NCBI GenBank assembly: GCA_000165425.1
Contig: CT868002.1
Location: 62,001 to 126,000 of the forward strand
Length of the DNA: 64,000 bases
Source of the DNA: Paramecium tetraurelia
Lineage: Eukaryota
Direction: 5' to 3'
Positions 20,763 through 62,182 of this stretch are shown in pieces. The notes beneath the pieces are model-generated. The model was not told the origin of the DNA and did no database searches. It worked only from the letters and a program-made list of their open reading frames with translations. Every line of letters begins with the position of its first letter. The first letter of the stretch is position 1. The translations under genes and the position numbers were made by a program.

Positions 20763-22873
<2,111 letters not shown>

Positions 22874-23014
22874 TTAAATATCTAAAATACTTCTATATAA
22901 ATATATTTTATGAGCGTTCCTGAAATATTTCTAGAATGATCTTTAGATCCAAATGTAAAAGTAGATAATAAATATGTTAGAATTATTGAAAATACAAATT
23001 CTAAAATAAATAAA

Positions 23015-23249
23015 AAATGTATTCCCTAAGGTTTGTCCTGAGGTAACAACATGTGAATAACATGCCATAATACCCTGGGAGTAGGAATTTAGAGATCGAG
23101 CTGAAATGAGGAGTCAAAGCCGGTGAAGACTGTCTCGACTCATGAAAGCTCGTTGCTTTGGGATGGCACATTAACATAAACGAGATATGTACTACGTCTT
23201 GTATTAGGATTGCTCGTATCATAATTGATACTATCATCCCTTCTGGTAT
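23015..23249 (-). ncRNA. U17: U17/snR30-type box H/ACA snoRNA (18S pre-rRNA processing)
   Basis: On the minus strand: 5' hairpin closed by GGGAUG/CAUCCC, H box AAAGCA (23154-23159) and internal hairpin CGAGCU..AGCUCG. The 3' hairpin carries m1 AAAUUCCUA (23082-23090) and m2 AAACCUU (23028-23034), then 7 nt, then ACA (23018-23020) and UUU. The 5' end is approximate. Confidence 0.85.
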
Positions 23250-23292
23250 TCTCATTCTTTTTCTTATAATGTTTTTAAATTGGGAATAATAA

Positions 23293-23304
23293 TTTTATGG
23301 GTTG
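23293..23304 (-). promoter_or_regulatory. Ciliate snRNA-type upstream sequence element (USE), CAACCCATAAAA
   Basis: CCCATAA core about 55 nt upstream of the predicted snoRNA 5' end, with a TATA-like TTATAA between them. Confidence 0.65.
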
Positions 23305-23314
23305 AATTTTATGA

Positions 23315-24324
23315 TCACAATTATAAATTGAACACTTTAATATTCTCATCATCACTACAGGTAGCCAAAAGGTAGTTTTTGGGATTGAAAGCAACACAAT
23401 TAACATCGAATTCAAAGGCATCCTTCTATAAAACAAAGAAATTACGAAGATCTAATCCAAAGCATAATGAGGATATCCAAGTTCATCTATGGCATCCTTT
23501 TTAAATACACTAATTTTGTTATCGGCACTTCCCAATGCAAAATACAATCCATCATATGAGAAGGATCCTGAATAGATGGGTTCCTTGTGAAATCCTTACA
23601 AAGTTTGGATAGGTTTCAGAGTTCCATCTTGAATTGAGAATACTTTTGCAGTGCAATCTGCACTTGTTGTAAGCAATAGTTTATTGAATATATCGATAGA
23701 CCAAATGGTTGATTGGTGTTCAATTTAGAATTGCTTATGATCCCACTCATCATCTTCTCCATAAGTATATCGAATTACGCTATTGTCGTAACTGCCCGAA
23801 TAGAGAGTAGTATCTTTCCACTTGATACATTTCACATCTTCATCATGTGCTTGGAGAACACAATTACAGCTGAATTCAAGATCCTCATGATCCCAAATCC
23901 AGACTGTTTTATCTCTTCCACAAGAAGCTAAATAATTAGAATCTGCACTCCATGCAACTCCCTTTACCTAAATTGCTATTGAACTGTAATACTTCAGACT
24001 CATGTCCTTCAAGTTATTGAATCAATTTGTATTTTGATCCGTCGTACATCCAAACTCCAACCACAGTGTCAAAACCCCCAGAGGCTAGAAATTGGCCGTC
24101 TTTAGAGAAACTCACTGATCTGACTGATTTTGTATGACACTCATCAAGAGTTTACTAACATGAATCATTAATGGACTAATTACAATTAATTTATATTGAT
24201 CATTCATTAATTGCCATAGCTTTATTGTTTTATCTGAACTGCAAGAAGCCAATATCTATCCATTTGGATGCCAAGCTACTTGCCAGACTCTCTCCTTATG
24301 ATCCTTTAATAATTAACAATTCAT
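23315..24324 (-). CDS. CIA1: Cytosolic Fe-S assembly WD40 protein CIA1/CIAO1
   Basis: HKERVWQVAWHPNGQILASCSSDKTIKLW, LEGHESE|VKGVAWS, ASCGRDKTVWIW, HDEDVKCIKW, SGSYDNSV and FDVNCVAFNP. Confidence 0.9.
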
Positions 24325-32216: not shown

Positions 32217-34655
32217 ATGTTGTCTCATATTTTTTAGAATATATGTCCAAATCATAACAGTGAAGTAGTTGCAATTAAACTGTCTGCCCATAAATAAGTT
32301 GAGGATGTTCTCATGTGCCTATACTGTCTAACAGGAAATGCTTAATATCCTGTTGTTCCATTAAATGAAATCTAAAAGTTGTATGAAGCTAAACTTGTAT
32401 TTATTAAGTAGTTGCAAGTTGAAAAGCATTAATTAATAAAAGCATATCTTAATAAAATAATAGATACTTTGAGTTAGTTGAAAAATGATCTGAATGTTCA
32501 ATTAGATAAAGGAATTGAGTTATTAGAAAACTAACTAGAATATGAAAATCTAAGACTTCAGAGAGAGCAGAATAATCAAGAGGATCAGGAGCAGACTTTA
32601 GAATATTATCTTCAATTCATAGTTAGTTGTGAATCCAGTTACGGTTAATAACACAGAGGAGAAGATGAATTTAGTTGGATACAATCCTTATCTAAGGAAT
32701 TATAGAAATTAAGCAAATTACAAGAAATATAAGACTGTTTATTGATTTCAAAAGATCTCAAAAAATAATATTAAATAAAAGATTAAAATCTAAAGTCCCA
32801 AAATTAAATAAAAAAATTACTATAAACGATTTCATAGAAAAAATTCAATGAGAGAACACCTAATTTGAATTTTAATTGCCAAGTACATGGCAAAGAAATC
32901 ATTTTATTTGATATGAATCATTAGACAGAAAAGCAGAAGAGGTTATGCTGTATAGAATGCATGCCCTCCTCATATATCTCATTAACAAAGGCTTAGGAGA
33001 AATTAAAATAATTTGAGACTAGAAGGTCTAATTATTTTCAACAATAAATACTTGATAAGGAATAATAATACGAATAAGTCTAGGAACAGATAATCAAAAT
33101 TGAAAATTAAATTGTTGAGTAGATCAAGAATTTAAGGGTTAATTTTGAAGACAATATATTAGCAATGAAATAAAAAATTGTCTTAAGTCTCAATTCAAAT
33201 AATTATGACATTTAAAATCTGAATTATTCAGAACTACAAGAACGGATTGACATTATAAGTAAATCAGAAGAAAATTAATAATGTATCATTTTTTAAGAAT
33301 ATCAGGAAATATAAAATTCTATTCTCTCTTAATTAAAAGAATAATTATAATAATTATATCAATACTAATAAAATTTATATGATAACCTAAGATCTACCTT
33401 ATGCAATTCTCAAGAGATAAGCAAGGCAACTAGCTAATCAGATTAATAAACCCATAATATTAATTATTTTATAATTGAAAATAGAGAAACATCAAACAGC
33501 AATTAATTGGAATTGTTAACTCAAAAATCTCAAGAATCCCAAGATTACAAAAGTAGTAATTAAACCTAAAAAGAATTCAATTTGTTGACATTATCAACTA
33601 TCAATGAAAATCGTTAAACAAGAAGCGCCTCTGCATAAGTCAAATCAAAAATTCAAGAAACAGAAAAGTAAAAAGATGATGAAAATCAAATAGAACTTTA
33701 TTAAGAAAATAATTATGAATTAATTGAAAAGTTTAAGTGGGAATAAAATTGTCATGCCATATCATTTAATCAAGATAATAGCCTTATGATTAGTGGTTGT
33801 TAAAATGACATAACTGTTTGGGAATTTAACAATGGAAAAATAAAAAAAAAATAATAATTGACTGGACATACTAACTTAGTTATTTCTTTGTTTTTCAGTT
33901 TGAGTAAACCGGAGTTCATATCTGGAAGTACGGATAAATCTATTAGATATTGGCAATTTGTTGAAAATTAATGGACTTGCACTTAGATGCTTTTAGGGCA
34001 TAAGAGACAAATAGATTGTTTATTGTTTGATAATAAAGGTGATTAAATTATATCCTGCAGTTGTGATAAGTCTATAAGGGTGTGGAGGAAAAATGAATAA
34101 TTAAAATGGATATAGGTTTAAGTGTTAACCGATCATTAAGCATATGTTAGATGTATAAGTTTTAGCAAGTCTCAAGAGTTGTTTGTATCATGTGGAGAAG
34201 ATAAGTTGATTATTATTTGGGAAATTGATGAATTCAAAGAGTGGAAATCGAAATAAATAATTAAAAATAGTGACTATGGATATCGGATATGCTTTGTTTA
34301 AAATAATTTGTTGATATGGCAACCAAGAAATATTAATTAATCAATTATATTTTAGTTAAATGATAACTTAAATCAGTTTGAATAGAGTACTTAAAATATC
34401 TAATTACTACTATCTAATAATGGATATTAAAACTTTTTTCCATCTCTATATAATGAAAATAAATAAATTGTTATAAATAAACATGGAAGATACGTATATG
34501 TTTTGAAAAAGTTAATTAATGATTAATTTTCGATTTCTTAAGTGATTGAAGTCGGTCACTATTGTAATTATGGTTCATTATCACCAAATGGTGAATACTT
34601 AGTGATTTGGGATGAAGGATCCAAATATTTTTAAATCAGAAAAGCCAAATTTTGA
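32217..34655 (+). CDS. WD40-repeat protein with two CxxH..CxxC zinc-finger-like motifs and coiled coils
   Basis: CPNH..CLYC and CQVH..CIEC. C-terminal WD40 repeats (GHTNLV..SGSTDKSIRYW, GHKRQI..SCDKSIRVW). Confidence 0.85.
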
Positions 34656-61655: not shown

Positions 61656-62182
61656 TCAAATAGAAGGACGTATTTGTCCATTTAACTTTGAGAACAATGC
61701 CTTTCTTTAGGTAACGTGAAACTGATTTTAAAGTTCTAAATTTTGCGCCTGCCTTAATTGCCTTCTCACTTCACCTCGTATTTCGTCCAGCACTCTCTCG
61801 CCATCAGATTCCCACAAAGCTTCCTTAATAATGAAGCCATCTTCCAAGGAAGGGTGAAACAGATTTTTGAACATGTAATACTCACGATTGATGTTACTGA
61901 TTTGAATTATACTGTCAAATAGTTTTTCATATTTCTCTCTTTCCTCAGGTTCTTCCATTTTATGAGGAGCATAAATAGGAGGACTGATAGGATGTTTATA
62001 TGGGATTCTAGAAAACTATTTCAATATGAAATGTTTCTCACATATTCAGGATAATCTGACTAGAAATCAAAAGGATGATAACTTAAAATGGTCTTTCCAA
62101 TTATTATTAATACAACACCTTTCATTAGTCCCCTTGTTATTGAAATCCCAATCTCAGGTTTAAGAATTTAGAAATATTGCAT
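61656..62182 (-). CDS. Hypothetical protein (alternative start at 62125)
   Basis: Open in code 6 after one 26-nt GTG..TAG intron; includes ORF-track segment MEEPEEREKY; ends QIRPSI*. Confidence 0.65.

Follow-up and report, generated by a model that had tools for sequence, protein, structure and literature searches.

A probable U17/snR30 H/ACA snoRNA gene with a predicted promoter of its own, placed directly behind CIA1 in Paramecium tetraurelia

What is encoded between two protein genes of the Paramecium tetraurelia contig CT868002.1, where a short island of raised G+C content holds no convincing protein gene? The island lies in a stretch of 64,000 nt (positions 62,001 to 126,000 of the contig, forward strand), referred to here as the window, and is flanked by CIA1 on one side and by a protein kinase gene on the other. 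A first-pass annotation, made from the letters of the window, had proposed a stand-alone gene for U17/snR30, a small nucleolar RNA (snoRNA) of the box H/ACA class, driven by an upstream sequence element (USE). All coordinates given below are positions in the window, and both the RNA gene and its promoter are read on the minus strand. The sequence features on which the proposal was built could all be located on that strand: going down from 23304 to 23012 one meets, in this order, the USE, a TATAA, a body richer in G+C, the ACA triplet and TTTTTT. The G+C fraction is 0.395 at 23000–23199 against 0.26–0.30 on the side of the kinase gene, which makes the locus a G+C island. In all likelihood 23015–23241 is a gene that is transcribed on its own and encodes the U17/snR30 (SNORA73) orthologue of this ciliate. 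This interpretation is supported by expression, by an H/ACA fold obtained without constraints, by the signature of m1 and m2 motifs with ACA 7 nt further on, by collinearity with the U17 RNA of Tetrahymena and by the promoter.

Expression was followed in four public sequencing runs, the RNA runs being chosen by species label, which were mapped on 22800–23500. They comprise a size-fractionated small-RNA run used as raw reads (X24), two older runs used as contigs (X10 and X14) and an oligo-dT paired-end run (X21). X24 gave 266 mapped reads (235 at an identity of at least 99%), all of them on the minus strand and all within 23015–23241. At the 5' end, 183 of the 186 molecules at that site start at 23241. 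The 3' ends are marked by adapter joins at 23015 (15 reads) and 23016 (7 reads), corresponding to 3 and 2 nt after ACA, and the RNA is therefore 227 nt long, with a minor form of 226 nt. This corrects the length of about 235 nt assumed at first. The RNA starts with AGGGAUG and ends in ACAUUU or ACAUU. Reads that run beyond the 3' end enter one constant adapter-like sequence, which we take to be a commercial small-RNA adapter.

A stand-alone contig of 225 nt in X10 corresponds to 23017–23241 with no difference from the window, a contig in X14 corresponds to 23030–23231, and X21 covers 23016–23231 at a depth of 1–11, where first mates are found on the plus strand only, the same orientation as in most CIA1 reads. 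A stable, end-defined minus-strand RNA accumulates in the cells. A discrete minus-strand transcript ending 3 nt past ACA had been set beforehand as a test of the first-pass annotation, and such a transcript is present in the small-RNA reads. In the oligo-dT library the snoRNA (depth up to about 11) and the CIA1 mRNA (up to about 13) are covered to a similar depth, and the snoRNA coverage may come from carry-over of an abundant RNA or from oligoadenylated intermediates.

The island also contains an open frame of 85 codons (23255–23001), with no TAA, TAG or TGA before the TAG at 23003–23001, which under the ciliate code reaches 220 aa. A short protein-coding gene starting at the ATG at 23255 could account for this open stretch and for the reads in the oligo-dT library, but the mapped RNA does not fit it: the ATG lies upstream of the RNA 5' end at 23241, the RNA stops at 23015 without a stop codon for the frame, and its 3' end shows adapter joins, with no poly(A)-type loose end reported. 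Moreover, the translated frame has no Pfam match, and no protein of 46–149 aa sharing words with it was found in a collection of 5.8 billion clusters, so that the suggestion that gene finders could mis-call an 84-aa open reading frame here is not shown. We regard a coding gene at this place as hardly conceivable.

Folding of the 227-nt RNA without constraints gave a structure of minimum free energy (MFE) in which a 5' hairpin, box H, an extra internal hairpin, a 3' hairpin and ACA follow each other. This is a hairpin-hinge-hairpin-tail arrangement with an ANANNA box in the hinge and ACA near the 3' end (Table 1). The MFE is −58.6 kcal/mol compared with a mean of −45.6 ± 4.2 kcal/mol for shuffled sequences (z = −3.12), and none of 200 shuffles folds as well. 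When box H, m1, m2 and the ACA tail were forced to be unpaired the energy was −56.2 kcal/mol, a cost of 2.4 kcal/mol, and all domains were kept.

Table 1. Features of the putative U17/snR30 gene and its surroundings (window positions; RNA positions counted from the mapped 5' end).
Feature	Window position	Strand	RNA position	Basis
CIA1 3' end: stop TGA (23317-23315) and short 3' untranslated region	23293..23317	-		translation, X10 contig
USE or proximal sequence element (PSE), CAACCCATAA	23295..23304	-	-63 to -54 from RNA 5' end	sequence
TATAA, first T 27 nt upstream of mapped 5' end	23264..23268	-		sequence; presumed TATA box
Mature H/ACA RNA, U17/snR30 candidate, 227 nt	23015..23241	-		reads, contigs, fold
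Branched 5' hairpin, closed by GGGAUG/CAUCCC	23160..23240	-	2-82	unconstrained MFE and centroid
Box H, AAAGCA (fits ANANNA)	23154..23159	-	83-88	sequence; single-stranded in MFE
Extra internal hairpin, between box H and 3' hairpin	23097..23152	-	90-145	fold
3' hairpin: basal stem UCUCU/AGGGA, large internal loop, upper stem	23022..23095	-	147-220	fold
m1-like AAAUUCCUA, 5' strand of internal loop, directly above 5-bp basal stem	23082..23090	-	152-160	
m2-like AAACCUU, 3' strand of loop	23028..23034	-	208-214	sequence, fold
Box ACA	23018..23020	-	222-224	sequence and mapped 3' ends
3' tail UUU		-	225-227	fold
T6 run TTTTTT across RNA 3' end, then A TTT A TTTT	23012..23017	-		sequence

The 3' hairpin carries close matches to the two motifs of U17/snR30, for which Table 1 of PMC7601244 gives the consensus sequences AUAUUCCUA (m1) and AAACCAU (m2). 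The m1-like sequence agrees with its consensus at eight of nine positions and has the pairing core AUUCC intact, and the m2-like sequence agrees at six of seven positions and keeps the core AAACC. According to an excerpt of PMC2664660 the m1/m2 element of U17/snR30 always lies 7 nt upstream of box ACA, and here exactly 7 nt (23027–23021) separate the end of m2 at RNA position 214 from the start of ACA at 222. The combined pattern TTCCTA-N40-70-AAACCWT-N7-ACA has a single match in the window, and no match in any of 100 dinucleotide-preserving shuffles. In known U17/snR30 RNAs the two motifs base-pair with two sites in expansion segment 6 (ES6) of 18S rRNA, named rm1 (GGAAU in yeast) and rm2, as described in excerpts of PMC2664660 and PMC7601244.

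The promoter can be compared with those of other ciliates. The snoRNA and snRNA genes of Tetrahymena have the USE AAACCCATAA, which lies 53–179 bp upstream of H/ACA snoRNAs and is stated to be identical in Paramecium non-coding RNA genes, and intergenic monocistronic snoRNAs of Tetrahymena have 3–13 consecutive Ts downstream (PMC3273799). In Oxytricha, the PSE TgACCCATnAAnnnTTA (TgACCCATnAA..., core ACCCAT) is frequent in small-RNA genes and lies 50–60 nt upstream (PMC3177221). The USE found here matches that of Tetrahymena at nine of ten positions and its distance is within the published range, while a T-tract lies directly downstream of the RNA, as for the intergenic monocistronic snoRNAs of Tetrahymena. 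The USE begins 10 nt after the TGA of CIA1, in agreement with the claim that the promoter sits directly behind the CIA1 stop codon.

The T6 run could be a possible terminator for RNA polymerase III (Pol III), or a T-tract of the kind that ciliate monocistronic snoRNA genes typically have. As to the polymerase, the T-run points to Pol III. In plants, a spacing of about 33 bp between USE and TATA marks genes transcribed by RNA polymerase II (Pol II), and by analogy the spacing of about 33 bp seen here would argue for Pol II.

Several results weigh against the identification of the RNA as U17/snR30. Each of the two near-invariant motifs has one deviation at an outer position (U2 to A in m1 and A6 to U in m2). 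Since AAACCAU is found in all 14 species tabulated in PMC7601244 (Table 1), the U at position 6 of m2 is a departure; outer-position variants of m1 are recorded in the same table for C. elegans, C. glabrata and T. thermophila. The similarity to Tetrahymena U17 was judged by eye. A metagenome scan with the pattern m1...GACAAACCTT-N7-ACA returned two loci and no Paramecium-like orthologue; the two loci lie in bacterial-looking coding DNA and were therefore taken as chance matches. No Rfam family reached its gathering score anywhere in the window. Searched alone (236 bases, 23010–23245), the RNA matched RF00045 SNORA73 with 11.2 bits, where the cut-off is 74, and E = 0.97 over 4227 families, and SNORA73 was not among the matches of a 501-base search with E up to 10, where only Yfr13, snoU30 and snoU54 appeared (all at E of at least 1.1, and judged to be chance matches).

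The covariance-model hit that had been expected for the locus was thus absent at the gathering score, and what was obtained is a full-length alignment below the threshold. SNORA73 was the sole snoRNA match among the 4227 families for the RNA searched alone, the alignment runs end to end (model positions 1–219 of 219), and the m1, m2 and ACA columns are placed at high posterior probability. For a single family named beforehand, simple division of the E-value of 0.97 gives about 2e-4. This alignment alone would not carry the U17 claim. As the Rfam scan fails (11 bits against 74), the locus would stay blank in an automatic annotation.

A score so far under the family threshold, two motifs that are each one base off consensus and a generic H/ACA architecture would also be expected from an ordinary pseudouridylation-guide snoRNA whose 3' pocket came to look like m1/m2 by chance. 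We consider such a guide RNA very unlikely, given that the 14–15-nt guide geometry described in an excerpt of PMC2664660 is not seen, that the combined motif pattern is absent from all 100 shuffles of the 64 kb, and that the RNA also agrees by eye with Tetrahymena U17 in the flanks of m1 and m2, in its length and in having an extra hairpin behind box H.

Two further objections of this kind concern independent transcription. The USE 9-mer AACCCATAA occurs twice in the window where 0.96 occurrences are expected, and 26 of 100 shuffles have at least two; it is no rarer than chance, so only its position carries weight. Ligation-based small-RNA libraries capture 5'-monophosphate ends, and if X24 is such a library, 23241 could be a processed end and not a transcription start. 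Both objections would suit a U17-like RNA that is cut from read-through transcripts of CIA1 and has no promoter of its own: the USE is statistically ordinary, and the sharp 5' end comes from a library for which a 5' monophosphate may be required. CIA1 shares its strand with the RNA and has poly(A) addition at about 23293–23297, only some 52 nt upstream of the RNA 5' end, one CIA1 contig (X14) goes past this site to 23274, and the depth of the RNA in the oligo-dT library is similar to that of CIA1. Against this, the CIA1 contig of X10 has a poly(A) tail ahead of the RNA, at 23293 (19 Ts on the plus strand) within the A run 23296–23293, and 23242–23273 is free of any read or contig in all four runs. 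The USE at −63/−54 (nine of ten matches) and TATAA at −27 are at the distances published for ciliate small-RNA genes, and the usual snoRNA gene of Tetrahymena is intergenic and monocistronic, with a USE and a T-tract downstream (PMC3273799). Processing from read-through transcripts appears improbable to us, and an independently transcribed U17/snR30 gene remains the preferred interpretation.

If the RNA acts as its counterparts do in yeast and human (excerpts of PMC2664660 and PMC7601244), it would assemble with the four H/ACA core proteins Cbf5/dyskerin, Nop10, Nhp2 and Gar1 and would guide no pseudouridylation. Its AUUCC (m1) and AAACC (m2) would pair with rm1 and rm2 of ES6 in the nascent 18S rRNA, and this pairing would refold ES6 and permit the early cleavages that free 18S rRNA. 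Judging from their positions, the USE and TATAA may direct transcription that begins at or near 23241, and either the T6 run or the bound snoRNP may fix the end at ACA plus 3 nt.

A more specific proposal joins three elements. The changes U2 to A in m1 and A6 to U in m2 might be compensated in the 18S ES6 of Paramecium itself (rm1 GGAAUU, rm2 (A)AGGUUU), the T6 run might be a Pol III terminator that makes the ACA+3 end, and the USE might double as the CIA1 poly(A) site. Taken as a whole, we regard this combination as doubtful. If true, the compensation in ES6 would give the snR30-ES6 pairing model a second case of natural covariation, the first being that of Trypanosoma brucei.

To our knowledge, no H/ACA snoRNA other than U17/snR30 is essential for 18S rRNA production in all eukaryotes examined, and every ciliate genome should therefore carry it. 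This ubiquitous snoRNA is known from Tetrahymena and Oxytricha, and the locus is very probably its expected orthologue, a useful annotation and no surprise, which leaves the knowledge of how U17/snR30 works unchanged. The locus adds a third ciliate sequence, after those of Tetrahymena and Oxytricha, toward a better covariance model, offers a testable prediction of co-variation with ES6 of 18S rRNA, and gives an example of tight packing, with a small-RNA promoter set into the 3' end of an adjoining mRNA gene. No paper reporting a Paramecium U17 was found in a full-text literature search; a prior description is possible, for example in the Paramecium non-coding RNA survey of Chen et al. 2009 (RNA 15:503).

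The 3' untranslated region of CIA1 is only about 18–22 nt long, and the poly(A) site falls inside the snoRNA USE or at its edge. Through this overlap, the formation of the mRNA 3' end and the small-RNA promoter may be coupled or may interfere with each other. The name CIA1, given in the first-pass annotation to this upstream same-strand gene, is supported, as its product is a WD40 protein with Ciao1/Cia1 as the best natural PDB matches (E about 2e-28). The translation of its last exon ends in ...NIKVFNLQL*, in which one TAA of the conserved C-terminus encodes Q, and an intron of 23 nt (GT...AG, 23445–23423, minus strand) is spliced out in contigs from two runs. An intron of 23 nt and TAA read as Q fit a nuclear genome of the Paramecium type. 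On the other flank a convergent gene, the putative DYRK of the first-pass annotation, ends at 22814; a protein kinase domain was confirmed in it.

The snoU30 (E 1.1) and snoU54 (E 8.1) matches are C/D-like and lie at 23296–23359 on the minus strand, over the C-terminal coding sequence of CIA1. Both arise from UGAUGAUGA (GAUGAUGAG), the coding sequence for DDE at the C-terminus of CIA1. Telomerase RNA was also considered and rejected for the island, where no C4A2 or C3A3 template was found beyond one CCCAAA and Rfam gave no ciliate-telomerase hit.

Elsewhere in the window, a second and perfect USE-like AAACCCATAA occurs on the plus strand at 33448–33474, with TATAA at 33470–33474. The distance from CCC to TATA is 19 nt at this site compared with 33 nt at the U17 gene, and the DNA downstream, which looks rich in A and resembles coding sequence, shows neither an evident structured RNA nor a T-run. 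The site could be a chance occurrence or another small-RNA promoter.

Some observations were made on 18S rDNA. A scan of genome contigs with the V9 motif of a Paramecium-labelled amplicon found the contig L003 (1–2282), which is filed in a metagenome-assembled genome (MAG) of an "uncultured actinobacterium" and is eukaryotic rDNA with the 3' end of the small-subunit (SSU) gene, 5.8S and the 5' half of the large-subunit gene. It covers SSU model positions 1626–1831 only. The contig is a mis-binned contaminant. In the MAG that contains it the V4 forward-primer site had no match, and the V4 reverse-primer site had one match with one mismatch, in bacterial coding DNA. The V9 motif had no match in viral contigs.

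Among known systems, the closest comparison is with U17 of Tetrahymena thermophila (TtnuHACA7, 243 nt; sequence in supplement file 2 of PMC3273799), which is listed in Table 1 of PMC7601244 at about 240 nt with the m1 sequence AUAUUCCUG (GenBank AJ544686). The two RNAs are collinear by eye and share blocks outside m1 and m2; the Tetrahymena RNA is a U17 established by experiment and likewise comes from a ciliate. Both have the domain order 5' hairpin, box H, extra hairpin, 3' hairpin and ACA plus 3 nt, with m1 and m2 at the same places, 7 nt to ACA and a similar length (243 and 227 nt). By eye, both start with A(A/G)GGAU, close the 5' hairpin with AUCC just ahead of an A-rich box H, and have m1 preceded by AUCU and followed by C-N-CCC. 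Over the last 25 nt (GG..AAACC.UAGG.A..ACAU..) 16 of 25 positions are identical in an ungapped comparison by eye, including UAGG after m2. The two RNAs differ in m1 (AAAUUCCUA here, AUAUUCCUG in Tetrahymena), in m2 (AAACCUU against AAACCAU) and in the 3' tail (UUU against UCA), and inside the hairpins no alignment could be made by eye.

In Oxytricha trifallax the H/ACA RNA Onc90 is the proposed U17/snR30 homologue; going by its description, its additional helices sit where they are tolerated, and its m1/m2 lie in a bulge within the stem nearest the 3' end (PMC3177221). Whereas Onc90 is on a nanochromosome of its own, the gene described here lies in a compact chromosome between two protein genes, with its USE overlapping the poly(A) site of a neighbour. 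Yeast snR30 has 606 nt (excerpt of PMC7601244). [quoted passage not shown] Human U17 is intron-encoded. The Paramecium gene differs in that it appears to stand alone, with a T-run and a promoter of the ciliate USE/TATA type.

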